This document shows positions 3,024-36,500 of a stretch of DNA of 38,724 nt, one piece after another. The notes under the pieces are model-generated. The model made no database searches. It saw only the letters and a list, made by a program, of their open reading frames with translations, and was not told the origin of the DNA. This DNA is from Phoronis australis (taxonomy: Eukaryota; Animalia; Phoronida), in NCBI GenBank assembly GCA_002633005.1, contig NMRA01001148.1, forward strand, positions 1-38,724. Reading direction: 5' to 3'. The position numbers and the translations under genes are program-made. The first letter of the stretch is position 1. Each line of letters opens with the position of its first letter.

Positions 3024-3878
3024 CTTTATACCACAATACTTGCGTCAAATGACAGATACAACCGTGTAATAACCCATAAAGTTATCTCACTAGTGAGATA
3101 ACGATTTGGAGGGAAACCGAGGACGGAGTCGAACCCGGGAGCCAGGAATTGCTGTTCGCCGACTTTAACACTACACCATGCAGCGACTGACGTCATCAAG
3201 AGTGAAAATAGAATACTTAAATGAGCACGCGCAATAATCGCATGTTCAACAAACCGCCTTGTACTATACTTATACGCTACGAAAAATTAGAAACATAATT
3301 TCCATAAAAATGATACCTTAATTCAGTGAAAATTTTCTCTCATATCCTCTTACCTGTGAATCACCGATCTCTAGTTTGAATGCGCGTATTGTGTCGTCAG
3401 GATCTTTGACTTGAGTATTATATTCAGTTACCAGTGGTAACCTACTTTAGCAGACGATAATTTCCCGGTCGAACGTGTTTTAAGCTATAATAGTTGGTAA
3501 ACCTTAATTTATAAATTCAATTTTTTTCTATTATATTTAAGTTTTCAATTGGTTTTGAGTAAAAGCAATATTTGACAAAATAGCCCAGCTTTTCTTAAAA
3601 GGTCACGACCTCCGACCCCGGGCCTCTGACATAGAAAGTAGTTACAAAGCTGTGGAGAGTCAGAAAAGGTAAATCGATTCATTGCAATGTTTCTCGTTTA
3701 GTATGTGGTATAAATAGATTATTACATGTTCTCAGTCGTTATCCCCTTATCTAGAGCCTTCGTGGATTTTATAGAATTATCACCCTCGGGGCTAAAGCCC
3801 CTCGGGCGATAATTTTCCAAAATCCACTCGGGCTCTAGATAACGGGGGATAACGACTTCGCCATGTAATAATCTATAT
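3024..3878. mobile_element. Non-autonomous hairpin element, Crypton-like architecture
   Basis: Inverted repeat TTTATACCACAATACT (~3024) / AGTATGTGGTATAAA (~3700), followed directly by a ~165-bp imperfect palindrome (3714-3876, centre GGGGCT-AA-AGCCCC). A perfect 22-bp palindrome lies at 3081-3102. Confidence 0.55.
3110..3188 (-). repeat. tRNA-derived (SINE-head-like) Pol III promoter segment
   Basis: Minus strand has A-box-like TGGTGTAGTGTT (3178-3167) and B-box GGTTCGACTCC (3135-3125) at tRNA spacing. No pairing acceptor stem. Confidence 0.6.
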
Positions 3879-3959
3879 ATATCTATATTTATATCTGTAT
3901 ATTACCACACAAAACTGAGGCCACGGGCACAAAGTACAAAGTTACAAATAGTCAGGTAT

Positions 3960-4640
3960 TACACGTTGTCGCCCTTCTCTTCAATACTAAAAAGACAAGT
4001 TTTTAAAACGAGATTTCGCACCTGACACCTTGATTCAACCAAATTTCATAAAACCGTATTTTGATAGAAATTGCCTTATAGGAGATACCCAATTATTTCT
4101 TCCATTCCGATCTAAATCAGTTAACATGTCAAAAATGCATCATGTCAATAGGCGTTTTAGCGTGCGTATCTAGTAGGTGGCATTTTCAACTACTCTAGCC
4201 AACACTTTACACATGTGACATGGTACTTTGCATCGAGAGGACAAATTCCACATTCACCCAATACAGCTGCGTTTGAGCAACAGTTTCCAATTCCAACAGA
4301 AATTTTACAGAATTAAACACATACTTTTTCAAGCCATTCATATTCTTTAAATCCCCAGATTTCCGCACGTACCACATACATGTAGTTAGCACAGCAATTT
4401 TATCAACCACCTCTAGTGATAGACTCAATGGTAGTTTCGTGCTCTTGTTTCTAATTTTAGAGATCGACATAGCAGCATCACTACCTTGGCATGCCAGAGG
4501 TTTAGTCGTTTGGACGAAGCTAATCTTGGGCAAAAAATATTCCAAGATATTTATATTGGGAGGCAATCTCCATTAATTGATTTCCATAATACCACTTCTC
4601 ATACAATCTGAGTGGCCCGCCATTTCTAAAAACAATGATC
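3960..4640 (-). mobile_element. 3' part of the same LINE ORF2; 4338-4640 nearly identical to 1-303 (probable allelic haplotig)
   Basis: Direct sequence match to 1-303 with two substitutions seen, ending at n4641. Continues into LINE C-terminal residues (..DRNGRNNWVSPIRQFLSKYGFYEIWLNQGV). Confidence 0.85.
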
Positions 4641-5849
4641 NTTGGCACAAGAAAGGAAACCAAGAGACAGGGTTATAGTTCTATTTTGGAATGCGAAAGT
4701 AGTAACATAAAACTGTAGCGTTAAATCTCATACCAGCTGATTCATTTCTCGACAAATCTTGCTGCGCCATTCTCTCAATATTTCTTTGTGTCTCCTTCGA
4801 AAATTCTCTATGATTTCTGTTCTGTATTTTATTTACACTACGTCCACGTTGTACCAACCCTTCTCGAGTAAGCCGCGTTGACCTAGTTCTTCTAAATGAC
4901 ATACAAACTCCGCCCAAAGTTATTCACGTGATTCTGAGCAATAGCTCAGACTCGATCGCGTCGCTAAAACTGAACGACTATTCTTTAATTTCTGCAACGC
5001 GCAATATCAAAATCAATCATATGTTGAAATTTTAAATACCCTGCTCGAGTAACTGTGAAAATTACTAGCTATCGCAGTCAAGAAACTAAAAGTTCTGATA
5101 TGATGCCGAATGTGCACTCCTCGATCACCACCGTGCGCTAAATTGCCGATTTTTCGCTTTTCCATTTTGGTGTATATTTAAATTTTTTAACATAAATTTC
5201 TCAGTGATGCGTGAACGGATGAAATTTTGAATACTTGCTATCCGATACCTTCCAAAGAGATCTGGGTCTCATGATATCGATTTAGGTCCTAGGTTTTCTA
5301 AAAGGTAGGCTTCAAAAATTAAGAGTACGGCTGTTTTTGCTCAAAATGCTCTAAACCCTGGAAAACAAAAACTATGGCCTTTTTAAAAAATCTGAGACAC
5401 GGTTTCCTCGAAAATGCTGGCATCAATATGTTTACAAAAGACCAGTATGGAGAAACGATACTTTTAAAATCTCTGTTTAAAGCCAAAATAAATACTAAAA
5501 AACATATCTCGTGATAAAATAAAGACAAAAATATAAGAATAATTAAGAAATTTTGTTAGGAAATTTATTCAACTTTCAGAAAATCTATACAACAACTTCT
5601 CATTTGAAATGAGCTTTTTTCAAATAAATGAGCGTCGAAAAAAGACTTAAATCTAATACTTAATATGGTATTGACCCAGACGAACCCAAACTTGAAAATT
5701 CATTAACTGGTATATCAGTGGTGATGATGTCAATGCACCGCAGACTCATTGTACTGCATGTAAAGTAACAGGTGAGCGTCTGTTCACATTAGCCCCCTTT
5801 TCACATGAGCTGAATACTCATCATAGGGTATTGACACAAATAGCATCCT

Positions 5850-8930: not shown

Positions 8931-10499
8931 AATATGTGAGTGAATAAAAATGTTTACATTTCAGTTGATGGTAGTTGCATAATAAACCTTGGCCAACTGG
9001 AAAACCACTACCACTTGAACAATCAACGAAGATAGGGGTTTGCCGCCTTGAACACAATGGCCTATTGAATCAGAGATTTCTTTGACCTGTCTAGTCGTGT
9101 CTGTAATGACACACTATACCTCAGTTGTGTCGCAAAATTGAACGATATTCCATCTGGCTGAATGAATCGTTATCTGGTGAATTTTATAGCAATATTTCAT
9201 GCAACATGGTGTAGTGTAGTGTAGGGGTGATTAAAAATTTTAATTCAGTACATAAATTAAATTGGGTTGTGGTACAAAATTTCACCAATAGCATAGCCAT
9301 CATGAAAGGCCGTCTGTAGTAAACAACATGGGCAAATCCTTTTGTAACCAATGTAAAATCAGAGATCATCTTGATCAATTGTCAAAAACGGTTATCCTAG
9401 GAAAATACATTTGTTGGGTCTCATTGGTAGCTGTGAGTGCTTTCTGCCTAAAAATTGCTTTAACTGGGCCGTGACAGATAAGCAGAGATTTGATTTTTTT
9501 AAAATCTGTTTTCAACACTAATTTTTAGTAATAAGCTGTTTGTTGTGATTAAAGTACATGTAGGAATTCAAAATAATTCAAACTTCAGTATTTAGGCTTT
9601 ATTGCTCTTTTGGAAGAGATTCTAAATTAAATTAATGTAAGGAAACAGATTATAACGATTGACCTTTTGCATGAACTTATCACTTCAGGTAAGCTTATGC
9701 TAGTGAAATGTGCCGCGCATTGGGATATAAATTTTCAGTATATTTGACCAATGCAAAAACTACCTGTCGTAAAATCCTGACTTCTCTTCAAAGACCATAA
9801 ACTAGAATACGATGAGAATGGTGGTCATCTTGTATTTGATACCTGTTGGCATTTAGAAAACTTGTTGTTCAAGAAAAGTAGGACTAAAAATTTTTAACAA
9901 GTAAACATGCCAGGCTTGCGCTAGCAGCTCGCCAGCTCGCCATTAGGGAATTCTGAGTGGCACTGCTACGTCCATTCGCCAACTTGGCGAATGTTTTCGC
10001 AACTTGATAATAAAAATCAATTTCGGAAAACCCACTCGCATGACGATTCATATGAGTCACCTCGAATCAAGTTGCGTAGCAAACGACATTCTTCCTTCTA
10101 TTCAGTCATAAAAATAGCAAGCCAATGTTTCATTTCATGCCCGTCACTCCTCCTGAAATCACTTTTTCACGAGACAAATTGTTCAACTCAATAGGGGAGG
10201 GGAGGAGAGGGGAGGGAGGGGATCAACACTGTTGGTAATGGCAATTCCTCGCTTCGCAGCGAGCTCCCAGTTGTCGTCTGCATGGGACATGAAATATGAA
10301 CTCATGCTTTAAATGTTCTATTTTCATATTACTGACTGTACTTCGGGAGCAAGTTTTCTGTTATACAGAATTTGTTGAATGCACGACACTTTTCATTGTT
10401 CACGGTCTTTATTCCGTTGCGTTCATACTTTCTGAACAAAACTCTACTCTCTACTGAACATAGATACAGTAACTGACCTAGCGACACAATTAAAAGACA

Positions 10500-10537
10500 C
10501 ACGATATTTCGAAACATACTTGTTTCATTCTCAAGTG
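10500..10537 (-). ncRNA. Minimal hammerhead ribozyme, U3-A8 core variant (copy 1)
   Basis: CAC-TTGAGAA-T-GAAACA-AGTA-TGTTTC-GAAA-TATC-GTG: stem I CAC/GTG, 6-bp stem II, AUC cleavage triplet. Confidence 0.7.
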
Positions 10538-10707
10538 AAGTGACTGTACTTCGGGAGCAAGTTTTCTGTTATACAGAATTTGTTGAATGCACGACACTTT
10601 TCATTGTTCACGGTCTTTATTCCGTTGCGTTCATACTTTCTGAACAAAACTCTACTCTCTACTGAACATAGATACAGTAACTGACCTAGCGACACAATTA
10701 AAAGACA

Positions 10708-10745
10708 CACGATATTTCGAAACATACTTGTTTCATTCTCAAGTG
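10708..10745 (-). ncRNA. Minimal hammerhead ribozyme, U3-A8 core variant (copy 2)
   Basis: Identical to 10500-10537. Confidence 0.7.
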
Positions 10746-11399
10746 AAGATAAAATGACGCAGTAATGCCACCACAGAGTATAAGCTGACGACACACACAG
10801 TGAGACACGGCGGGTGTGAAATACTGCAAAGAATGACTAATGAATTGGGGTAACAGGAAAGTCACGCAAACAAGTGTAACGTGCGGCGCGACCCTGTTTG
10901 CTGCTCATTCAAAATAGGCTTCTCAAAAGCAATTAAAAGGGACTCTAATACTTTCAAACGCAGCACATCTTGCTCCACGTAGCGAATTGACGTGTTTTCC
11001 ACAATTTCTTGACGGGTGATTTTACGTGCGTGGTATTGCAGAAAATGATCTTGAATGGCGCCATTTTGAAGATGCATGGATAACCGACGGGAAAGACTGC
11101 AAACCGTTTGACCATTGTAACATTGTTTGACGTTTGAACGAAGACATTCGTTCATAGGGCATACAAATTCATAAACAACACTACACGGTGCAACGGGGCG
11201 GACTTTCGCTTTAGAAATGTTATTTTTCATGACCAAGTTGGAGGACTTCCTATTGCTATTTCATATTACATGAATCTTTCCCAATTCATAACAAACTTAA
11301 CCAAATTTCAGCGCACAATTTACCGTGTCAAAAATTGGTTGAGACTTGACAAGGAGTAAAAGGCGCAGACGACGCCGGGAAGAACGAGTTTGTTTTCTA

Positions 11400-11877
11400 T
11401 TTTTAAATCACAATACGTCACATGTTACACCTAGGGAACGCAGGGAGAAACTTGGTCCGTTTCTGAGTGGAAGAAAAGGCAAAAGAAAATCTAGTGCAAA
11501 TGGACTACGACAAACTCATAATAAATGGAAAGGCTTATAACTAATGACGACTCTGCCAAATACATTGTTGAGTTCGGAGCAGGTCCGCGAAATGAATTTA
11601 GACAAAGGCCTACAGTTAAAAGTGAGTAGTTGGAACATAAATGGGTTAAAAAATAAAATACATCACTGATTTGATGAAGTCTTTCGATGTAATAGAACTT
11701 CAAGAGACATGGACGGGTTTGTGTGTTTTAACAAAGTAAGAACGGAAAGAAAACGTAGTATGCTTATTTTTGGAAAATAAGAATTGTCTGGTTATGTAAA
11801 TGAGGTTGCATCAGATTTGGAGAATATGATTTCAATAAAATTTGTTGCTGGTATGAATAAGCCACCTCTATATTTAG
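11400..11877 (+). mobile_element. LINE B: end of ORF1 and start of APE endonuclease (decayed)
   Basis: VQMDYDKLIINGKAY (ORF1 C-terminus-like), then LKVSSWNINGLKNK..FDVIELQETW (APE motifs I-II). Confidence 0.8.
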
Positions 11878-13194
11878 ATTAAAAGCCGGGCGATAGCCTC
11901 AAAAATAAAAAAGTCATGTTAAATCAACGTTTCATCTATTTATTAGGCCTCATCAGGATATTTCCAAAGGACGACAAGTGCCAAACATACAGCTCAGGTA
12001 ACATCCAAGAAGTGAAGTGAGAGAAACAGGGAATATACATGTAGTCAGTAGCTGGTCATCACCATGAGTAGTTGCAGAGTCACTGAGCTCTGCATGTTGT
12101 TCAGAGAATCAGTAGCATGCTGGTTCTGAATGGCCAATGACTCTTTAATGTACAGTAATTCATTATTAGTTTCTCTGCAGATAACACTAACTGAATTGGC
12201 TTGGTGGTTGTTGCTTACACAATGCCTATATATGTTGTTTTTCTCTGAGGGAGGTTTGATGTTCTTTCAGCTTGTCACAGAGGCGTCTCTGTGTGAGTCT
12301 CATATAGAATTCCTTACAGTTCTCACATTCAGTCTTACAAACAACATGCTTTTGTTCAATAAAGAGATGGTGACTTCAGTTTACACAGCATATTTGAAAG
12401 TCTCTGAAGAGGTTTGAAAACAACTATCAGTTCAATGGCTGGGTCTATGCAATGAATAAGGCGAGAAAATTGGCTATTCAATTTTGTACTACTTGGCGCG
12501 GTGTAACCAAAAGGGAAGAAAACTTTCTTTTTCTCGGGTCCAATAACAGCTACCTTATCCGCCTCATTCATTTTTGAAAGGAAATGCCTTTTACAGCTAT
12601 TTAAAAGATTCAGAGGATAACCATTGGCACGCAGTAACTGGTAAATCCTAGCTACGTCACTATCAAAACTTAAATTGGTGGATCAAATTCTCCAGGCACG
12701 ATGTAACAAGCAATTGACTAGACCTCTCTTGTATTGGATCGGCACAAAACTAACAAATTTAAGATAAAGCCCAGAAAAACTCGGCTTACCATACAGAGAT
12801 GTAACAACTGTGCCATTCTCACGTTTAACCAAGACATCTAGAAAAAGTAGGCCTAAACACGACTCGTGCTCAGATTCACTGGTGAAGTTGATGGATGGAT
12901 GCATATTGTTCATGTGATTGAAAAAGGTGTTGACTGAGCTCTTGGATGAAAACATAACAAACGAATCGTCTACATACCTACGATAAAATTGTGGTTTACA
13001 ATCCCGGTGGACAACTAGCCAGAGCCTCAGTCTCGAGATTGCACATGAAATTATAAGCTAACCCTGGTCCCAGGGGTGGACCCATGGCCAAAAAAGTTAT
13101 CATCAAACAGAAAATGGCTCTATTTAACTGCGATCGTGAGTGACTTACGTAATTGGTTATTGTGGCCAAAAACTGATTTAATAAACAATATCCG
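11878..13194 (-). mobile_element. Penelope/Poseidon-type PLE (RT C-half, decayed GIY-YIG, pLTR) inserted into the LINE B endonuclease
   Basis: AMG.PL, KPQFYRRYVDDSF, HPSINFT..FLDVLV, NGYP, CENC..Y. 12-bp TSD CTCTATATTTAG (11866-11877) / CTCTATGTTTAG (13195-13206). Confidence 0.9.
11923..11959 (-). ncRNA. Hammerhead ribozyme motif (stem II decayed)
   Basis: ATC-CTGATGA-GGCCTAATAAATAGAT-GAAAC-GTT-GAT; homologous to the intact copy at 34792-34828. Confidence 0.65.
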
Positions 13195-14690
13195 CTCTAT
13201 GTTTAGGGAATGTTCATATTTCCCCTCAAGCTTCCAGGCACGTAAATGAACCAAATTATGACAAAATCGAATCCCTGATTGCACAATTTAAGTCTCACAA
13301 TCCAAATAGCAATGTCATGCTGTGCGGTGTCAATGCGCAATCAGCCTCATTAGAAGATTTTGTTAACAATGAGACTGTAGTGCCATTACCTGATGATGAC
13401 CTAAATGATATGGGTTATGAGTACGATGCCCAGATACCGTCACGTGAGTCTCAAGAGAACGAGTGTAATAGTTATGGTCGGTAGTTGTTATACCTTTGTA
13501 AAAGCTGTAGAATTAGAATTCTAAACGGTCACAGTGGTAGTGATGTAGATACCGTTGAATTTAGTTTTATGAATACAAATGGAAGTAGTGTAGTAGACTA
13601 TTAAGTCAGTGAAGAAATTCTGACCTCAGTCATCGATTTTCAAGTCGGCGATCAAGTCGACTCTGCTGATTTTCCGTTGGAAATGATTATAGACGGGGAA
13701 GTGTTGTTTAACTTGCAAGTAAACTCACAATGTCAATAGAAAAGTAAACAGATTCATAATTTGGAAAGATGTAAATAAAAATAATTAGTTTGAAACTTGC
13801 AGTTGGTCGAAGGCAGTGGTTGTCTGGAAAATATGATATCAAGTCTTCAAAGCAACACGAGTAATGTTGACGAGGCCTTAGAGTGGAAGTATAATTTGAT
13901 TGTAAAATCAGGCTTAAGCTCCGATATGAGAAAAAACTGAGCCAGCAAAACGTAGATCAAAACCAGAAACATGGTTTGAAAGAGAATGCCATGGTTATAA
14001 GTTAATAGTACGTAGTTATTTAAGGAAATACAGACAACATGGAACTGGAGAAAATTTGTCAAAATATAGGGAATATAACACGAGATATAAAAATCAATAA
14101 AAACATAACAAAAAATATTCCGTAAAAGACTATCCAAAACACTGTTGGATTCATCTATGAATGAAATTGAAAAACAAATTTGGAACTGTGTGAAAGGTAA
14201 CAAAGAAGAACCGTCTTCAAATATTACACATACACTGTGGTATAACAGTTTTTCAATGTTTATACTTCTCAGATTGGAGACTATGACGTATTTTTCTCTC
14301 AGTTTCATGTATATGTTGAACAGTTTAGACACTTCTTTGAGTCAGAAGAAGCAATGCATAACATGGATGATCAGTCAGTTTTTAATAAAATTATTACTAA
14401 GTTTTGATGAAATAGATAAGTGTACGAATGACATGAAATTGGGTAAAGCTGCTGGAAATGATGGTATTTCGTTGGAATTTTTCAAGTTCGCAACACCCAC
14501 ATTTAAACAGTCTCTCGTTTGTCCGTATAATAAAATTTTTGATACGTGGAATTACCCGTCTCAAAGGAATTCAGGTATCTGGAAATAAGAATGACCCAGA
14601 CAACTACAGAGAATATTTGCCCAGTTGTTATGTAACCGACTACAATCATGGACGGATGCGAACAATACTGTGTTTGAGGCTCAGGCTCCC
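13195..14690 (+). mobile_element. LINE B continued: APE endonuclease, linker, RT N-terminus
   Basis: NVMLCG.NA, NSYGR*LLYLCKSCRIRILNG, NGSSVVDY, MKLGKAAGNDGISLEFFK, NDPDNYR, VFEAQA. Confidence 0.9.
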
Positions 14691-14829
14691 TTTTTGGAAG
14701 AATTGTTGAATAATCGAAATGGCGGGGCAGGTGGAGCTCTCGCCAGATACGATCTGTAGCACCATTCCAAGCAGCGGACAGGGCAAACCTGCCACCTCCG
14801 TTTCTGTTGAGTGACGGGCTGAAGTCTTT

Positions 14830-15420
14830 TGTACAATTTCGCCAAATAATTTCCACTTTTCATGATTCCTCAAGTATCCACCTTTCCGGACGACTATAAT
14901 TTTTGTCTTCGACATATTCATATGAAGCTTCCATTTATTTCAATATTCTTCTGGTTAGGTAATTAATGTTTACATAGCAGTGTCGGTTTCAGCGACTAAA
15001 ACCAAATCATCGGCAAACAACAAATATAAATTCAATATTCCACTATTTACACACGACGCCTGCACATTTTGTAAACCACTTTATAAATCATTTGTAAACA
15101 GCGAGAAGAGAAAGAAGACAACTGAAACCCTTGTCTTTCACCAATCGTAAATTGGAAAAATCGGTTACGTGACCATCTTCATTCAGCAAGACGCAAGACT
15201 TCACATTTTCATACATACTGTTTAGAATTTTATGCTTTTTTCCAAAATTCCAAAACTTGACATTTTATACTTAAGACCCTCTCGCCAGACCCAGTTGAAC
15301 GCTTTTTTAAATTCGACAAAAAGACAATAGAACCGGCCTCTACGATTCAATAGATATTTGTTAATTAATGTATCGAGAATAAACATGTTATTCACTGTGG
15401 AATATCCCTTCCTTGAAAGC
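14830..15420 (-). mobile_element. LINE B RT core, inverted relative to the upstream part
   Basis: RKGYSTVNNMFIL..FYCLFVEFKKAFNWVWR, LLFADDLVL, MNMSKTKIIVVRKGG. Begins exactly where the + strand part stops (QA|GFRKG). Confidence 0.88.
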
Positions 15421-19423: not shown

Positions 19424-20870
19424 TATATATCAAAACGCTAAAATAAGGTCAAAAGAGGTCGCTAACTCCCGTCCCAACCCGACGCCTCCTTCCTCTTCTT
19501 TCCCGCGACTTAAAATCGCCGGGTTCTGCGGCGGCGACAAAACCCCCGGCGTGTTTTCTTCCTTTGTCTTGCTGAGTCGCGGCTTCAGTCATCCGGCCAT
19601 AACAACCTGTATTTACCGTTTACGCCTACTAGGTAGGCAGCTCGCTAAATATTCGGCGGCGAGAGAAATCGAAGAAACGATGTAAACGTTGAATAATATT
19701 CCAAAATTCGAATCAAACGAAAGCGTGGCCTTGACAGACAAATTGCCCTCTGGAATGAGTCTGGCAGAAACCGAAAAATGATCCTCCCAAAAATTAGCTA
19801 GCTCATACACTCGAAGTATCGCAAAAACAATTCCATGTGATTCAATACTTGTCAGTGATCACTAAATGCCCTATGACTGACAAAATACACTCTGGGTTAT
19901 GCCCGACAGAAACTCCCAAAAATGTCAACCACGGTATGCCATTGAAGAGCTGGATTAGATATTCGCGGTACCAACTAAACTGGGTGAATGAGTCGTGTCT
20001 TTCACCTTGTTCTCTAGTTTGAAATGTTTCTGAATTAAAATGGCTTCTATCCTGCAATTGAATTTGAGCCCAAAATTCAAAATTCTTCTACTATTAATGA
20101 CCATAATATCCCACACTACAGGACTGATTCCACAACAGGACTCTCGTAACGAACGCCGAAATGAATGATTAAAACAGGCAACCCGAAAGTGTTGACTCGT
20201 TGGACTACTACGAAGACGAACTAAAATCAGGAAATCCCCGGCGTAACAGTGCATGTATGGGCATAGGTTCGCTTCTTGCAAAAATAGAGAAAATGTGGAT
20301 CTATCTGCACTAAAGACTGGAATAAAGATTGAGATCTTGACCATTTAAAAGTACTTTTAGCGGAATGAATGCCGAGAGAAACTCGCACAGTCCAGTGGTA
20401 GTGGTTTCCCAGTGTGTGAAGGGACGCAACAGCAGCTCACAGAGTACTCGTACGCGGCGAAGAACAGGTGCGAGTAAAATGCTAAGGCCGCGCATTCGCT
20501 TCACTCGAATTTAGAAAAACAATTAAACATTTACACCGTTTCCTCTATTCTATTTCTCTCGCCTCAGAATATTTAGCACGCAGCCTAGTAGACGTTGACA
20601 GTAAACACAGGTGACGGACGAATACTTACGAATACTAATTTCGGCTAAGAGAAAGAAGCGCGTTCGCCGGATCGAAATCTCCTTGGTTGCACTCATGTTC
20701 CCTTCCCCCTAGTGGACACGTAAGAAACCAGCAAGAATGGAGATTGACGGCCTGAAACCAGGACTCAGAAAAACAAAAAAACGCCAATATTTTGTGACTG
20801 CAGGACCTGGCGCTTTTCCATCGCGGGAACGAAAGGGAAAGAGGCGTCGGGTAGGTCGGGCGTACCTTCC
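19424..20870. mobile_element. Pair of inverted ~300-bp repeats (19424-19720 and ~20495-20870), probable long-TIR DNA element
   Basis: GGCGAGAGAAATCGAAGAAACGATGTAAACGTTGAATAA vs inverted TTTACACCGTTTCC..ATTTCTCTCGCC; CGACGCCTC..TTCCCGCGA vs TCGCGGGAA..GAGGCGTCG. Confidence 0.65.
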
Positions 20871-20989
20871 GAAGTTTCCCAATGCAATGATTTTATTGTA
20901 TTGTGCAAGCACAGTGCATAGACTACAGCACCAGCCCCATCTATTGTCAGATTATTATAATCTTAGAGGTTTGAAAGTAATAGAGGGAA

Positions 20990-21574
20990 ATATCGTAAAG
21001 AGGTATTGTTCTGTTAACACCATAAGGAGCCAGCTGATGAATGTGAAAGACAAGACCACGAAAGAGAAAACATCAAATGTGTTGTATGGCGTTTCATGCT
21101 CGGAACCAGGGTGTGGGAAATCATTCATTGGGGAAACCAAACAAGCCCTAAAAAGTCGTATCAACCAACATCGTAGGCCCAGTTATGGGGACTGCTATGA
21201 TTCTGCAGTTTTTTGTCATATAGCTTCCACAGACCACTCTTTCGCCATGGAAGATGTCAAGATCCTAGATGGAGGGGAAAATTGGTTTAGGAGAGGGGTC
21301 AAAGAAGCTATTCACGAGAGAATTGAGAATCCTAGCCTCAACAGACAGGGGGGTTGAGGTTTCTCTTACCTAGGACGAGAGACAGGGCGCTGAAGAGGAT
21401 CCCGCGAAAACTGTGCGACAGATCACATGACGAGTCACGTGACAACTCAGTGGCCTGATGAAGTCCTCGACAGGAGGACGTAACGTAGCCATCTCTATGT
21501 AACAGTAAGTTCAGTAACAGATTTATTAATTTTTCTACCTTATTACAACAACTGGATGACCGAAAACATTCATC
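20990..21574 (+). mobile_element. 5'-truncated Poseidon-type PLE: GIY-YIG endonuclease and pLTR
   Basis: KDKTTKEKTSNVLYGVSCSEPGCGKSFIGETKQALKSRINQH..SAVFCH..RGVKEAIHERIENPSLNRQGG; hammerhead downstream; ends at n21575. Confidence 0.9.
21451..21491 (+). ncRNA. Hammerhead ribozyme motif with GAAA>GTAA core mutation
   Basis: TGGC-CTGATGA-A-GTCCTC-GACAG-GAGGAC-GTAAC-GTA-GCCA. Confidence 0.75.
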
Positions 21575-24319: not shown

Positions 24320-24687
24320 CTGGTAAAACGTCGAGGCATTCGCTTGACTTGAAGTTTCTAAAATTATTCAACGTTTACATCGTTCCTTCCATTTCTCTCG
24401 CCGCGGAATATTGAGCACGCAACTTAGTAGGCGTAAACGATAAACGAAGGCTGCGGACGAATACCTCCAAATAGCAACCTTTGGCTTCGAGAAGCATATT
24501 TATCACGACTCGGTAATAAAAAGGAAAAAAACGCCGGAGTTTTGCGGCCGCCCCAGAATCATGCGCTTTTCCGTCGCGGGAACGAAGGGGAAGTAGGGGC
24601 GGGTGACCGCACGTCCGCTCTTGAGCTGTTTTTGTCCGATGGACTCGAAGCAAACATCCGGGCCTCTTTTTAGCGTTTTAATATATA
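24320..24687. repeat. Third copy of the 19.4/20.5-kb repeat arm, with terminus
   Basis: Collinear with 20495-20870. Ends CTCTTTTTAGCGTTTTAATATATA, approximately the reverse complement of TATATATCAAAACGCTAAAATAAG at 19424. Confidence 0.75.
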
Positions 24688-27220: not shown

Positions 27221-30200
27221 ACTATCACGCAAGCTTAAAAACAAATACAGGCTTGGTAGAATAATAGAATGCCCAGTATCCACTTAACAAAAAATAACTT
27301 CATTATTGTTCATCAAGACCATTGGCTACTAGAAGTTCTTAGATAGCTAACGACCAAAATACATGGGCAGAGCAACACTGAAATGATTCACCAATGGACA
27401 TTTTATACATTAGGTCAACACCATACTACAAAGCTGGGAGTGAAAACGGATAGAGGTACTGCTGCAACAATTACTAATCCTGTGTGGTAACTTTATTCAA
27501 CATTTAGTTATACAACAAGTAAAAGTTTTAATCGGCGGATCCATTCTAATTGTTTTTCTTTGTTATAATAAAGATAACTGGCTAAATGTGAGCCCACGGT
27601 ACGATATCCAAGCGACCTGTGTTGTTATATTTAACACAGACGTAACAAAAGAAAACAGGGGTGGTGTCCTAGAGGCGATAATCATGCGACGCGTCTACGC
27701 GCGCCGCATGGATGTCGCAAGTTAAACAATACCTTGCGACCTCCATACGACATCACGTGGCATAGGTAATGGTCACCTCACCTTATACAACTGATGGGTC
27801 TCGAAATTTTCAATTGATTCAAATTATTTGTATGCTGGACAATTAAAAACATTTCAAAAACAGAAAATGTAGACTCGGATAAAGCCTCAAGCTCCAAAAT
27901 TCAGAGCCCTCTGTCGGCTTCATTCGTTAGCATTAATACAGTGTAGCTTGACTTCAGTGCAAACAGTCCCAACCACTGTATATGCGCGTATTGAAGTGTT
28001 TCGCGTAAAGACTTGTATACTCGGGAACCCAATGGTCGTCCGCCTAAGCATAAAACCGACTTGCTGTTGTACTCACCGAATTATTCCACTTCAAAGTTAT
28101 GATCTGAATAGGATTCGATTTAACTCTCACAGATATACCACATTCATCGATTCGGAAGTTTTCTTTAATTTGTGCCGAGTTATTTCAAATGTGCACTGCA
28201 ATCGGCAGCCATTTTATTGTGACACCTAAGGTCGTCATATGCTGCCCCCTTTCGTAAAAACTGAGAAACATGCAGAAAAAGGCCAACGAAGTAATGAAAA
28301 TTGCAACAGCCTGTTTTTATTGACATAAACTCGATTTGAAGCTTTGATGTTGAGCTCTGCACTGTGGTTTCCAATAAAAGCCAATTGGACAACATTTCAA
28401 TGCAGTTTAATGGTGAATGCGTGAGGCAAAAATGTTAAGAACCCAGCGTATCGCATTTGTCTGCGGATTTTTCCTTTGGCCTTCTAGATCCTACTAGTGC
28501 CTGGGACAAACAGATACATTGCATAAACAAACCCTGGATCATGTTTTGTGTCCCGTCGGAAGAAAATTTAAATTCGAAAACATCTTCTGAAAACGCACAA
28601 AAAAGTGTATTAGTAAAATCTACTGATTTTTAAGTGGTTTTAAAAAACAATCGGTAAACTCACCGATTTTTGTCTCATTACTTTGATACGTGTCTCTTCC
28701 GATAAGTTAGTACCTAACGTGCACACGAGCACTCCAAATTGGAACGCTAAGTCCCGCGTGGTTGCGCTGCACGCGAAACAAGATGGCGGACGACCTTTGG
28801 AGCCTGACGACAATAGGTAACCGGACTATATACATGCTTCATTTATGTGCGCAAATTAAATAACCCTAGGAAATGTATATGTTTTAATTTTTTTCATGTT
28901 TGTCTTTTTCCACCATTTGTATTTTTTGCCACAGATATTTTCACTTCGACCACTTCCCGATATAAATTCTGTACTCAAATTAGAGGTGCCTGATTTCTTC
29001 AGTTGGAAAACAATAACTGCCCTTTATTGTTTGAGACCCTCGCTAGTTCCTGCGAGTAGATAACACACAGGTATTATTCAGTAGCACGGGCATTATGACT
29101 GTAACCTCGGCAGTCATTGGTTAGCTTTACAACAAAGAAAGAAAATGCTGGACTGTGAACGATTTTAGATTTGTCATGCAAGTGTCGTCGCAGCAACTAT
29201 TTCGTTTCTATAAGTGATCTTTAAAAGCCACGTCCTTGAAGCACATACATGTGCAATAAACACATTTCTGGCCAATTTAACTAGCGTGTTATTCATGCTG
29301 TGAGATTACAGGACAGCAACGTGAACAAAAGTCAGCGACAGCAGAAAAATGCACTCCGAAAAGACTCAACCACAATTTTCTACGATTCACGTCTCTTGAA
29401 CATGAATTAAGCGCCGGTTTGTCTCTACAACAGACCACATTTACATTTCCTCCACCAGTCATGCCAGTTTGTTTGCGTAAAGCGCTACTTGTTGAGAATT
29501 CGACCAAACAGAAACGCCGGTGTAAAAAATTCCCGAGCAAATTAAATACGTGCATGTGTTCAACCATCTAGCGACACACAAGAAACCAACGAGCTTTGAG
29601 ACCATGCCCGTCTCCGGCAATGTCCCGCCGTAACAATGCTGGTCAACCAATGACGAAATGCCATTTCTTTTCAAACTCAGAAACCAACAATAACTTCCCA
29701 AAAGAAGTAAATGAGATCGAATATAGAACTGTACATGATATCAAGTAAATGTCAGCTTTTGAGAGGGAAGACGGGTCTATATAGCCGGTTTACTGTTGAA
29801 GTGAGTATATGTCAACATGTGCTATTTGCATCGGACCTCTTCACCTACAAGCTGTATGAAAAAGAAGAATAAAATCTCGTATATTCAGTGATTTAACATT
29901 AGGAGAACTGGTATAACGTCAAAAATCGAACCCAATGAAATGCCGGAGATATCAGTTACAGAAAACCGTCGTTGGTGCGACTTTTTTCAAATTCAATGGT
30001 ACTTTCGAGCGCAGTTGATGGGGGTGTGATTCATAAAACGACGACTTTCACTGATGAAGCCACTGCACTCTTTTTGGCGTACACAAACTATCTATCACCC
30101 AGCTACTTCGTACCTGCGGGAATCCACTGATATAGCCGTAAGGTTTACAATGCATCATTGGTTCACTTTAAGCAGGCACGCCCACAAATACAATCATCCT

Positions 30201-30244
30201 GTCAATAACATAAGCCTTTAAAAACTGCATTATGACTGGCTCAG

Positions 30245-30282
30245 TATAAAATCTGACTGCCTACATATTAAAGATGGTCAGT
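30245..30282 (+). promoter_or_regulatory. TATA box and Inr-like motif of the secreted peptide gene
   Basis: TATAAAA at 30245-30251; TCAGT at 30278-30282; ATG 85 bp downstream of the TATA start. Confidence 0.6.
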
Positions 30283-30329
30283 GGCATCATAACATATCTA
30301 GACGCCGTCATCGACGTGACAAGTTGACA

Positions 30330-30341
30330 ATGAAGACGTTG
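30330..30341 (+). CDS. Exon 1 (MKTL) of secreted cationic Cys-rich prepropeptide
   Basis: ACA-ATG-AAG-ACG-TTG|GTAAGT: A at -3, consensus donor, phase 0. Completes the signal peptide MKTLILLCAVFGILVGRLNA. Confidence 0.7.
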
Positions 30342-31969
30342 GTAAGTTGAGTACACCATCAAATTTATCTGAAGTGACGACAAACTAAAATATTTCTTTA
30401 ATCATTTTTACTTTTCAGTCATGAAATCTCCATCACATTTATATAACATTCGTGACTGAGTGTCAGATTTAAGACCACTGTTAGGGTAAAGCCCTTTAGG
30501 TTGACAAACGTTTTGCAGCGAAGGTATGATGTAGACATTAGAATACACGTGTCTAAGTAAACAATTTCATCTGGATGGAGATTGGTAACACTGAAAGGGT
30601 TCATCTATTCACAGTCCATATGAACGCACCTTGCTCTGAGAACTTGCTACCTCTCAGAGTCACGGGTTTAAGGTTATGAGTATGAATCGTGCAAAAATGT
30701 TAAAATTTCCTACCATCATATCTCTCATATGCGGCTGACCGGATTCAAACGAAACTTTAGTAACTTTAAGTACTTTTGCATTCTTCTCCAAAATTCTTAG
30801 AACTGTGTTTGATATATTTTATTTTTTGCACAAAGAACATTTGAAATATGAGACTTGTATGGTTTTATAATAATAATTTATGAAACTTTATCAGTGTTTT
30901 TGAGAGTTCACCTTGAATATGTTTATACAGCAAAAGGATTTTGACGTGATTATTTTCCAATGAATGTAACATTCTTTTTTAATGTTGCTGAAAACAATGC
31001 ACTGTCACGTGACCCAGTTAGTGTCAAATAACTTATGCCACGTTCATTCGATACGAAGTTCGTCTTTTTCCGTGTGACGTTATTATGAACATTACCATTA
31101 TACAGCTTTCGCAACGATTTTGGTGCGTTTTCCTTATTTTCGAATAAATTAAAATACGTAGGCTATCAAGTAAAGCTCCAGGGCTATGCAGATAGGCACT
31201 GTTATCTTGGCAAAAGTCTCCATCGCATCTCCCGTTTAATGTATTCAAAATGCTTCTTAAATCGTTGAGTTTCCACACTTCGAACTAAGAATACCGACCT
31301 CAAGTCCACTACCTCAATGACTACATTGCTCAGTTAATTAAGGTAACTGTGAATTTTATTTTCCAGGTTCTACTTACGTACAAATATCTTAAATTGTGTT
31401 AGCTGTAACCCCTACAAAATGTATATTTTTGAATGTAAATAGGTAAATAAAACAACAAGAATGGATCACCTGAAATTTTCGGATGTAATAACTTCCTTTG
31501 TCAACAGAAATTTTGAAAAATGAATAAATGTGCTAACAAATTGTATTAGAGATTTTTAAAGAGTTGTTCCTCCACCCCCTCTGAAACTCTGAAATGTTCC
31601 TCGAATGGTAATCAACAACGACAACAACGAGATGGCTAATGAAGTCTGCAAGATGCTAAAATTTCAAAACAAATTTAGTTTTGTGTAATGCTTTCGTGAT
31701 TTTAGAGGCATTGGGAGTTCTGGTCGACGACTATGCACTCCTTTTCGAGTTTTGAAATCCGATCTGCCAATTTGTACTGTAAACACAAGTTTAAGCGGTT
31801 TATAAATGTTATTTTAACAACACCAACAATTCCAAAGATTCTTATGTTCACGATGACACTGGTCATGAAGGTGACGTCATTTAGAAGGTTAGCATGACAA
31901 CCTAAGGACTTTGTAACTAAAATCGTGAGTTCAGATACAAAAATGATTGTCTTCATTTGACATTTCTAG

Positions 31970-32283
31970 ATCCTATTGTGCGCCGTGTTTGGGATTCTTG
32001 TGGGACGGCTTAATGCCGAAGAAGGGGACCAAGCTGGCGATGAATTGGTTAATTACGAAGAGGAAGAAGAGATGCTTCGTGAACTTAACAATGTTCTCCA
32101 TGATGACGACACTGATGACATGGAAAATGTGGACGAGACGCTAGGTGAAACGAAAGCAGAAGGCTCGTTGGATGAAAGTCAGAGAGGAAATTTGCCGAGG
32201 TGTCGTATGCGCTTGAAGAGGCTTAAATCATATAATAAGTGCTATGCCCTGAACCGACCTCTCGTTTATCGTTACTGCGTCAG
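31970..32283 (+). CDS. Exon 2: signal peptide core, acidic propiece, first part of mature peptide
   Basis: Acceptor TTTCTAG|ATC (phase 0); open frame ILLCAVFG...YRYCV; donor AG|GTAAGT (phase 2). Confidence 0.88.
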
Positions 32284-32665
32284 GTAAGTAAGTCTAAGTA
32301 GGCTTAAAACAATTCGTTGTAGAAAATTATTTAGCGTCATTCTGAACCCTTTCAAATTTCATATGCAATGCAGTTAATCGCTATTATATGTGTCATTTAT
32401 ATAGTGGAAAAATGGGGAGAACGATAAAGGTCAAAACATTGGCACACTTAATCGCTTATGCTTTTTATCCAGGTTCTAATTTTCTCCGTTAAAAGGTCTC
32501 AGATCGACCATCGAGAGAGATGAAGTTGTTTGGAGATGGGATAGAGTAGTCTTAACTATAATAATTGTTAAACAATATACCTGACGGAAAAACTATACAG
32601 GAGGTATGTTTTGAAGTTTTATTCTACACAGCCCAGCTGACTAAGTTTGTTTTATTACATTGCAG

Positions 32666-32798
32666 CGCTAGATGCATGTGGAAGGGACGAAAGGTAGCTT
32701 GCGCCAATAAGAGGAGGTTAACTCCGCGTTACATTAAATGCAGAGGATGTCGTCCAGTGAAAGTCGCCATACCAATAGTATCTTGCCGATGCAAATGA
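32666..32798 (+). CDS. Exon 3: C-terminal part of mature peptide ending CRCK-stop
   Basis: Branch-like CTGAC/CTAAG, pyrimidine-rich tract and TTGCAG|C acceptor. Phase 2 matches exon 2 (AG+C = Ser). Reads ARCMWKGRKVACANKRRLTPRYIKCRGCRPVKVAIPIVSCRCK*. Confidence 0.88.
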
Positions 32799-32935
32799 AA
32801 TAAGACGTATGTGCAGAAGCAATGTAACCGTTACACGCGCAATTATGGAGCATTCTTGATTATTTGCGGTAAAGGTTGCGCATACTGTTATTTTGATACT
32901 GGCGTCCGCACGTAATTCCTAGATTCAAGACATTC

Positions 32936-32936
32936 G

Positions 32937-32972
<36 letters not shown>

Positions 32973-32986
32973 CATACATACATACA

Positions 32987-33018
<32 letters not shown>

Positions 33019-33022
33019 CACA
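32936..33022. repeat. Compound (TACA)n/(CA)n microsatellite
   Basis: Directly visible. Confidence 0.97.
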
Positions 33023-33344
33023 TTTATCACTATAATTGGGCAGTGATCTTTCTGGTATACATATTTCATTGAAGACACGACTTTGATATGTTTTTACTAG
33101 TTTAATTTCAGTTCTTTCCAAGTGTGTGAGTAGTGATCTTGTCTTTACATCAACATGTGGGGATGAAAATACAGGCGACATCAGTAGGTAACATAATTTA
33201 AAAAGCGATATTTCGAGACACATATCTCATCTTCAGGCTACTATTTACAACTAGATAACAGTGAAATGCACATCAGAAATGACAAATTCAATATAATAAG
33301 TGAAGTTGGCATGCGCAACAATGACGATAAAAACATTTATAAAT
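33023..33344 (-). mobile_element. Solo pLTR of a second Naiad-like PLE family
   Basis: Hammerhead followed by ORF N-terminus KTRSLLTHLERTEIKLVKTYQSRVFNEICIPERSLPNYS, similar to the 10.3-10.7 kb pLTR peptide. GTACATACAT on both flanks (32936, 33345). Confidence 0.75.
33204..33239 (-). ncRNA. Minimal hammerhead ribozyme
   Basis: AGC-CTGAAGA-T-GAGAT-ATGT-GTCTC-GAAA-TATC-GCT. Confidence 0.75.
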
Positions 33345-34447
33345 GTACATACATTGCTGTGTAACAGAATCTATAGATCACCTAAATGATGAAAGAGTTC
33401 TTAGAGTTCCAGTTAGCTGTTCGCTGGGACGCTGAAGAAAACGTCAACACTAAAAAATGCCCATTAGCATGAGCTCAATACATAAAAATTGACACCCTGC
33501 AAAATTAGAAGTTTTGAGCCTGTTTCGAGAGAATCACCCAGTACAGCCCATAAACATCTTCCATGCCACCTGGGTCAATTGTGTGTCTGGTCGTAGATAC
33601 GGGGTCGTATTCACGAGATTGCGAATGTGGTGTTTCTTTGATAGAGATGAACCATCGCAAATTCTACCGTACACCGTATTCGTGCTCAATAAGCTAGCTA
33701 TGCCAGTGAAACTTAGGGTAGACATATAGGTACGACCGGGCATACAATCCGTGACAGAACAGGGAAGAGGATGATTTTCCACAAATTTATGCCGTACAAC
33801 GTTTTCTTTTGTCCTCGAAAAGGTCAATGGCAACGAGCAGAAGGCGCGACGATGACTTTCTCTTGCACAGTTTAAAATACATGTATTATTGACAATTGGC
33901 CTAATGGTTGCTGCCCGTCATACCTATCTCACTGACACTAACTTAAATTTGCTAATAGATGAGATTCAATTCCATCGAATTTGTTACGCTAACATGTGTC
34001 TACTAACGAAATAAATATTACAATAACAGCGTCAAGTGTTAATTGTTTAATTTTAAGGATTTCTTGGGACTTTGAGCAGCAATCCCTTTCTTTCAACGCT
34101 TGCAAGTGTTGATTCCCCATTTGCCTTGGTGACTCCTATCGGCACATCGCAAACTATTTATATTAAACTATGCTACAAAAGACTGATATCATTATTTTCC
34201 AATTGCAGACCAAGCATACAGTCCCTACTAAGTCCACCTATAATTTCAAGTGTCACCATAGGTTGTTTTCCGTAGACACAAGACACTTGCGAGCACGGAT
34301 AGTGCAGTGAGTCATGTGCTTCGGTTGCCGAATACACATCTCAAGTGACTTGCGTTTTTGTGTGCGAGTTTCCATGTTGCGTCTACGCAACGTACGCTCT
34401 CTCAAATTTCATGGCTCACTGGTGAGGTCCCAAAGTAGGCAGTGGTA

Positions 34448-34900: not shown

Positions 34901-35149
34901 TAGGCAGTGGTAGTTTCCCATTAAAATAATACTCATTTCGAAATATAGCACATAAAGAAGGCGAGTATAAAGCTATGAGTTATAAGTAAAACTGGGAAGA
35001 GATAACCAGGATCTTGGTTATCTCTTCCTGGTAAAACATAACATGACTCTGAAGGTAATTTACTAAACATAATTTGAACATGTCCATGAACGTCTGTTGA
35101 ATTTCACTTAAGCTTCCCTCTTCCGCCACCATTGTGATGACGTTTCAGA

Positions 35150-36500
35150 TATACTGTATTCCAAGTACATAGATTTCAAGACTTTAAGTAAGTTACCATG
35201 GACACCAATTTTTTGTAATCTAATACCACAGTAACACATGAGGAACTCTGTCAAATGCCCTCTAAATGTCGAAAAAAGCACAATAAAAACCACCCCCGTG
35301 CTAAGTGTTGTACCTTTGCCTTGGGTGCAATAGCCGATGCGGAATCCCGCCTGTGATTCACGACGTTCGTCATTTGCCTCAGCCCAGGTGCTAAGGCTTG
35401 GGTTCAACCCATGACGTTAACATATTTATTTTTTTTTAATTTTGCGTGTTTCTTTATGAGTTGTGCACTAATGGCACTAAAATTAAGTAAGATATAATAA
35501 TAAAATTTATTTTGAGGTACTAGAGTCATGTTGTGTACACTTTAATAATTTGGTGAACAGCTTTCCTACAGCTGAAAGCAATGAGATACCTCTATAATTG
35601 TTCTCATCTTCAGTGTTACCCTATTTAAGTATGGGAACACTTATTGCGTCACACCTAGACTAACCCTGTGGGCAGTGACCTGTATAGCGAGAATCCATTG
35701 AAAAGCAGTTCCAATACACGAACAGTAACTAGCTACCCTTGTACTCTTCAACATCTCAAACAAAACATGATCAAAGCCGACTGCTTTGCCATTTGGAAGA
35801 TTCAGTAAAGAGCAGTCAATTCAATCACATGATAAACAAGTATTCGGATCACTGGGTAACTTTTGGTCACAAGCATCAAAGTAATTGTCATGATTTTCTT
35901 GTTGTCTTTCGGCCGCATTTGACATAGTGTCGCTCAATTCTATCTAGGACTATAATGTTCATATTACTCCCAGGTTCTATCCGTCCATTGAGCAACGAAT
36001 TATAATAAACGTACCACTGTTTTGGAGTTATCAAAGTTTCCTTCGGACTACAATTAAAATTTGATGTTACCAGAGCCCTTAATTGCTTTGGATTATTTCT
36101 GCTATCCGAAATATTTTCTAGCAACTTCGATTGACGCTCTTTTTTTCATTGAATAGTATGCGAAATTGTTTCTTATTTTCTTTGTGTAGGCCTACTGCCA
36201 ATTTTCCAGGAGAGGAATATCTGCGAAAAATATTCAAAGATGGATTTTTAGGTTTTTGCAGTTTGAATTCTTTGTCCCACCAAGGGGGTTGTTTTCTCTG
36301 CCGTTTAGCATAAACACGTTTCTTTTTAAACATTGCCATCGATGCAGCAGTTTATTTATACAGATTTGTGACACCATCTGTTGCACTTTCTATGTCGCTA
36401 CGGGAAATCTGTTCAACTATTCGATCTAGACTTTCTGATAGGCAATTTGAGAACACTTCATGGAATTCTGCTACACGGCCACAGTCCCACTCTAGGTGAG
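35150..36500 (-). mobile_element. LINE fragment paralogous to 600-1400, interrupted by a ~145-bp insert (~35397-35543)
   Basis: LSTWAEANDERRESQAGFRIGY and QPPWWDKE linker; collinear DNA similarity to the copy at the window start; insert ends TACACTTTAA. Confidence 0.9.

Follow-up and report, generated by a model that had tools for sequence, protein, structure and literature searches.

We examined a 38,724-nt stretch of the Phoronis australis genome (contig NMRA01001148.1; hereafter, the window), which contains on its plus strand a three-exon gene that is real, spliced, and transcribed. The coding exons (30330-30341, 31970-32283, and 32666-32798) sum to 459 nt, or 152 amino acids plus stop, and the splice sites and phases of the gene model proposed in the initial annotation, which was made from the sequence alone, were borne out. 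Both introns have GTAAG donors and AG acceptors, with branch-point-like motifs upstream of both acceptors, and the GC content is 47% in exons 2 and 3 versus 34% in the introns. The coding part of exon 1 (30330-30341) reads MKTL and ends at a phase-0 donor; it is one of two short candidates running from an ATG to a strong donor in 28000-31960, and the same codons occur in spliced reads of a paralogue (see below). Intron 1 (30342-31969; 1,628 nt; GT-AG, phase 0) carries dispersed repeats, and the use of its acceptor is indicated by one read from the RNA run X1. Exon 2 encodes the remainder of a predicted 20-aa signal peptide (31970-32017; assigned from hydropathy and identity to the paralogue), an acidic propiece of 56 aa with a predicted end at E-S-Q-R (32018-32185; assigned from composition and the predicted cleavage site), and the first half of the predicted mature domain, with Cys 6, 19, and 31 (32186-32283). 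Intron 2 (32284-32665; 382 nt; GT-AG, phase 2), placed by read depth and one crossing X1 fragment, divides the cysteine domain into halves. The coding part of exon 3 (32666-32798), defined by sequence and reads, supplies the second mature half, with Cys 36, 45, 58, 61, 73, and 75, and the stop codon.

The TATA box claimed for the upstream region was confirmed: TATAAAAT starts at 30245 (30245-30252, plus strand) and is the sole TATAAA within 30150-30330. About 35 nt past it lies TCAGT (30278-30282, plus strand; motif match), which is likely an initiator, by its resemblance to the initiator consensus, and the start of transcription. Transcription from this point would give a 5' untranslated region of about 50 nt. 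An upstream ATG opens a 17-codon frame at 30274-30327 (plus strand), with its stop 2 nt before the main ATG; this frame begins just before the likely transcription start and may be outside the mRNA. A second AG is found 6 nt into exon 3 (32670-32671), in frame, and its use would cut the C-x4-C segment of the peptide by two residues; we rejected this alternative acceptor, as the one fragment seen uses 32666 instead. Downstream of exon 3 there is a TACA/CA microsatellite at 32937-33016, and in 32799-34170 no canonical poly(A) signal occurs before an AATAAA at 34010.

Transcription was assessed in three raw RNA runs from the same species (X1, X2, and X3), with ∼18 to 19% of each run read. Four X1 reads fell on the gene at an identity of at least 99%; all first mates were on the minus strand, as expected for plus-strand RNA in most stranded libraries. 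Reads at this identity were absent from the ∼18 to 19% of X2 and X3, and a fourth, contig-only RNA run had no coverage of the exons. The X1 reads were modeled as one 113-nt fragment across intron 2, with both mates reading it, plus one pair on exon 2. This two-fragment model reproduces the 4 exon bins of the first read mapping and the 8 bins of the second mapping (those without paralogue and repeat reads). The depth pattern of X1 requires an acceptor at 32666, and bins wholly within intron 2 have no sense-strand depth. Further, one X1 read begins at the exon 2 boundary with at least 20 non-intron letters before it and so enters exon 2 from an upstream exon. Of the two junctions proposed, the crossing of intron 2 was seen directly, in the one X1 fragment, whereas direct read support for junction 1 came from the paralogue only. 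Intron 2 was thus shown to be spliced in RNA of the same species. It is important to note that the support for the gene consists of two fragments (two molecules) among 12.8 million X1 records from one sample, and that no joint for the gene reached the listing threshold of 3 reads.

A second set of reads, recovered at 80% likeness, matched only 31969-32018 (71 reads in X3, ∼7 in X1, and 6 in X2), with none on the remainder of exon 2 or on exon 3 at this likeness. When these paralogue reads were compared with the gene by hand, 43 of 49 nt were identical and 6 positions differed, and the signal peptide had four changes, all from one hydrophobic residue to another. In 52 of the X3 reads, an exon that closes with the same MKTL codons lies upstream and is joined at the same place, which confirms by homology the tiny first exon predicted for the gene. 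Unspliced paralogue reads (3 in X1 and 4 in X2) have a different intron at the position of intron 1. Past 32018 the paralogue diverges; among its next 10 residues, again read by hand, 5 are D or E and 4 are identical in register. Because X1 contains both kinds of reads and the intron differs, the paralogue reads more probably come from a second gene than from an allele. No second gene copy was found within the window. The reads show a gene family in which the signal part is conserved and what follows is variable.

The composition of the precursor is as originally claimed. The first 11 residues encoded by exon 2 have a mean hydropathy of 3.2, and the signal peptide was judged by eye and from hydropathy. 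The 56-aa propiece contains 23 D/E and 3 K/R (net charge, −20), and its acidic stretch in exon 2 is the sole 30-mer with at least 13 D/E in the six frames of the window. The 76-aa mature part (∼9 kDa) contains 23 K/R and no D/E (net charge, +23), with 9 Cys at predicted mature positions 6, 19, 31, 36, 45, 58, 61, 73, and 75. The layout is bipartite, with a signal peptide (by hydropathy), an anionic propiece, and a cationic, Cys-rich C-terminal part. The peptide contains one XBBXBX motif, a heparin-binding pattern. A furin-type R-x-K-R site and three more dibasic sites lie within the predicted mature domain, so this domain may be cut further. At the end of the propiece, E-S-Q-R has Arg at −1 and Glu at −4, which fits the PQM rule for propeptide ends (PMC6832493) and is weakly informative about cleavage in so Glu-rich a propiece.

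The initial annotation had been unable to place the peptide in a named family, and our searches of protein, profile, structure, and metagenome collections yielded no credible match that would do so. Each homology query consisted of one exon or part of an exon because intron 2 halves the cysteine domain. With exon 2 as the query against 5.8 billion proteins, neither of two candidates (E up to 1) was credible, and the same was true of the one candidate for exon 3 among longer proteins. Against 1.84 billion representatives, exon 3 had a single match (E = 1.5e-4), which was dismissed as a four-fold repeat without the cysteine frame. Pfam gave no families on any of the three single-exon pieces, and single-exon queries found no usable match in the ESM Atlas and none among PDB sequences. 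In metagenome contigs, none of 389 pattern matches was confirmed, and a 21-nt stretch common to the gene and its paralogue had no matches; Rfam had none in the window. These searches show no close relative among the collections searched, and a distant family would be compatible with the blank results of single-exon queries. Judged in this way, the sequence family appears to be undescribed.

The spacing of the cysteines narrows the classes of disulfide-rich domain to which the peptide could belong. CS-alpha-beta defensins pair a C-x3-C on a helix with a C-x-C on a strand; the peptide has CxC and lacks C-x3-C. The gamma-core is GxC-x3-9-C or one of two mirror forms, and none of these three patterns had a match in the peptide. 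An adjacent CC pair, part of the C-C-CC-C-C frame of inhibitor cystine knots and CRP-I in the excerpted text of PMC4558851, is also absent. These three absences speak against a defensin-type or inhibitor-knot identity. The peptide had earlier been described as cystine-knot-like; the inhibitor-knot type of that description is not supported, whereas the spacing suggests a knot of the growth factor/hormone type.

The pattern resembles that of C. elegans alpha2, for which passages of PMC9910494 give the bonds 8-56, 32-85, and 36-87, plus 22-70 tying loops 1 and 3. With Cys 61 omitted, the gaps of the peptide are 12, 11, 4, 8, 12, 14, and 1, compared with 13, 9, 3, 19, 13, 14, and 1 in alpha2; the eight cysteines occur in the same order, five of the seven gaps agree within 1 residue, and a sixth agrees within 2. 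The finger gaps are 24 and 27 (23 and 28 in alpha2), the ring gap is 4 (3 in alpha2), and loop 2 has 8 residues (19 in alpha2). Twelve residues separate knot Cys I from Cys 19 and knot Cys IV from Cys 58 (13 in alpha2), which places Cys 19 and Cys 58 at the positions of the pair joining loops 1 and 3. In a post hoc spacing test, for which the reference was picked after the pattern had been seen and random placement is a lenient null, nine randomly placed Cys fit alpha2 as well in 14 of 300,000 placements with loop 2 free, in 338 of 300,000 with the first Cys and final CxC fixed, and in 744 of 300,000 with all seven gaps scored. For the six knot Cys alone, the same lenient test gave 70 of 40,000, or 1,135 of 40,000 with three fixed. 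Two reference chains were used, and the fit to the other, beta5, was poor (deviation of 20, versus 5 for alpha2).

The ring segment of the peptide is C-x4-C, the spacing given by the read-supported acceptor at 32666; it has no glycine, and CxGxC does not occur. The ring segments of alpha2 and beta5 have three residues in the excerpted PMC9910494, and a ring glycine is described as conserved in the hormone/DAN-type knot family in part of PMC4079206. Folded separately, the two halves gave pLDDT values of 62.5 and 54.9, which are of low confidence and apply to the halves only, and the low-confidence model of the exon 3 half matched nothing in a structure search. From the spacing, we consider it reasonably probable that the mature domain folds as a compact growth-factor-type cystine knot. 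Such a fold would build its knot from the bonds Cys 6-45, 31-73, and 36-75, with Cys 19-58 linking the two beta-hairpin fingers and Cys 61 left unpaired and available for a dimer.

Among known systems, the cystine-knot hormones and DAN proteins (GPA2/GPB5, bursicon, gremlin, and sclerostin) have in common with the peptide a terminal CxC and secretion, the latter predicted here. Moreover, excerpts of the literature describe a basic surface for sclerostin (PMC9271392) and an odd cysteine for gremlin (PMC7473711), both of which the peptide also has. Unlike these knots, the peptide combines its glycine-free C-x4-C ring and 8-residue loop 2 with an extra Cys three residues past the loop-3 Cys and a 56-aa strongly acidic propiece, and single-exon searches found no sequence similarity between them. 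A second set of parallels concerns the precursor. Hydra periculin and similar bipartite antimicrobial peptides, as portrayed in sections of PMC10945409, likewise have a signal peptide, split charges, a complex Cys pattern, paralogues, and no outside homologues. However, the Hydra peptides are very highly expressed and this gene was rare in the runs read; periculin also has no sequence link to the peptide, and the likeness drawn here is one of layout. Inhibitor-knot prepropeptides of mussels (CRP-I), spiders, and cone snails have, in the portions of the literature consulted, a conserved signal, a variable remainder, an acidic propeptide, and a PQM-type end, as here; for CRP-I, a conserved N terminus and a variable mature part are described in an excerpt of PMC4558851. 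They differ in having C-C-CC-C-C in short peptides, whereas here 9 Cys without CC extend over 76 aa, the paralogues differ in the propiece as well, and the cysteine domain is interrupted by an intron.

Our preferred reading, held tentatively, is that the gene encodes a secreted prepropeptide whose 9-kDa, +23 domain likely forms a growth-factor-type knot and likely serves as a host-defence peptide, in a family without database relatives. The signal peptide would send the precursor for secretion, and the −20 propiece would nearly offset the charge of the +23 domain and keep it inert in storage. Anionic propeptides are proposed to mask charge in the precursors of spider toxins and of antimicrobial peptides (PMC6832493, section 2.6). 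A protease cutting after E-S-Q-R would then release the +23 domain. Once freed, this rigid, two-finger basic domain may bind polyanionic surfaces, such as microbial envelopes, and the bound peptide could damage or clump microbes.

A role in defence, argued by analogy, falls a little short of being probable; it is the best fit because the layout, the existence of paralogues, and the absence of outside homologues are also found in Hydra antimicrobial peptides and because mussel CRP-I shares the conserved N terminus. The initial annotation had suggested a defence, toxin, or matrix-binding peptide, and while the defensin-type and inhibitor-knot forms of that suggestion fell with the absent CC, C-x3-C, and gamma-core, a host-defence or toxin-like reading gains support from the comparison of the gene with its expressed paralogue, in which the signal is conserved and the rest is divergent. 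As in a multigene family, there is one expressed paralogue with a conserved signal part, and single-exon queries found no credible outside matches. Low expression in the runs read and the internal basic cleavage motifs count against the simplest version of the mechanism.

More doubtful is the further proposal that a lineage-specific family put a hormone-type knot to direct use as an antimicrobial or toxic peptide. This peptide would be a minimal knot of 76 residues and +23 charge, its ring wider and free of glycine and its loop 2 nearly absent, masked by the propiece and diversifying behind a conserved signal. We found no report of a growth-factor-type knot as an antimicrobial peptide in the open-licence literature, including the excerpted PMC6161137, which does not establish its absence from print. 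Bursicon homodimers are reported to induce immune genes (PMC3314635), an effect of signaling rather than killing.

The same cysteine spacing, which is close to that of alpha2 and extends to the pair between loops 1 and 3, would also suit a paracrine signal or antagonist that evolves fast and derives from the DAN, sclerostin, or glycoprotein hormone group, although we consider this rather unlikely. Sulfated glycans close to the secreting cell would retain such a protein through its positive surface, and there it would bind a receptor or a BMP or Wnt pathway protein; glycan-tethered signals such as sclerostin or gremlin are described in excerpts of PMC9271392, PMC5008011, PMC7473711, and PMC3843708. 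Sclerostin is basic and has the same tip disulfide (passages of PMC9271392), Gremlin and SOSD proteins have long N-terminal extensions (passages of PMC4079206), and both the low expression and the XBBXBX motif would suit a signal. Yet developmental knots are conserved across animals and single-exon queries found no homologue here. The ring also lacks the glycine, and just 8 residues make up loop 2, the location of the receptor site in sclerostin (excerpt of PMC5008011). Moreover, divergence that sets in immediately past the signal part is seen more typically in effector families.

That divergence, with a conserved signal and a variable remainder between paralogues, would also suit a toxin. A mucus, skin, or gland toxin acting against predators or prey and stored as an acid-masked precursor would resemble spider toxin precursors in its signal peptide, its acidic propeptide, and the Arg (−1) and Glu (−4) of a PQM-type end. 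We regard such a toxin as distinctly unlikely, as the peptide is without the inhibitor-knot framework (no CC), a PQM match counts for little where the propiece is so rich in Glu, and no toxin homologue was found with single-exon queries.

The protein might instead belong to an extracellular material (egg coat, cement, cuticle, or mineral matrix), with the cationic knot cross-linking acidic polymers and the propiece, whose cleavage is a prediction, perhaps staying attached. The extreme charge split, the odd Cys, and several Tyr and Lys residues would suit this role, but the precursor is small and free of repeats and of low-complexity structural motifs, and a protease-type site closes its acidic part, which makes a structural or binding protein improbable. 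Finally, support from two fragments with no joint at the 3-read threshold, together with the lack of homologues in single-exon searches, would be expected of a chance or decayed gene model with background transcription only, but this is very improbable for a frame that is open across both introns with canonical sites and higher exon GC, where sense-strand reads end at exon edges and a paralogue has the same start exon and intron position.

The layout of the precursor is of an already known kind; what is new is that it is likely paired here with a hormone-type knot that is shrunken and free of glycine. Short, intron-split genes like this one are of the kind that annotation misses. If the predicted fold is true, the peptide would be a growth-factor-type knot of very small size whose ring is altered; if microbe killing is true as well, it would represent a new antimicrobial peptide scaffold, in which a signaling fold has been recruited as an effector.

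No neighboring gene was found in the window, the rest of which resembles an animal genome in being repeat-rich DNA with reverse transcriptase and GIY-YIG fragments. Intron 1 carries short dispersed repeats (31431-31510 and 31255-31290), and reads of other transcripts contain them by the hundreds and on both strands. A decayed Penelope-like retroelement occupies 10333-13057 (minus strand); its open reading frame at 10862-11260 matches three reverse transcriptase proteins (43 to 72% identity) and, weakly, GIY-YIG, and the perfect tandem of 2 × 208 bp at its 3' end (10333-10748) represents a pseudo-LTR or else a duplication made in assembly. We rejected another apparent secreted peptide (10531-10836, minus strand) because it lies within this transposon repeat, and its signal-peptide-like reading frame is probably due to chance. 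On the plus strand, a 214-codon frame at 20713-21357 resembles by eye the GIY-YIG end of a retroelement, with no Pfam match at E 0.01. LINE-type reverse transcriptase fragments were found at 304-1366 (with Pfam RVT_1 at 304-627), 14109-14939, and 35108-35942, and 612-1366 has similar copies at 35165-35942. Positions 1-303 and 4338-4640 are 99% identical, and the second of these adjoins a single N at 4641, possibly reflecting an assembly duplication. The window also contains a dispersed repeat family (19474-20855 and 24336-24604) with copies in both orientations that are 69 to 80% alike, and a palindromic element at 3709-3881.
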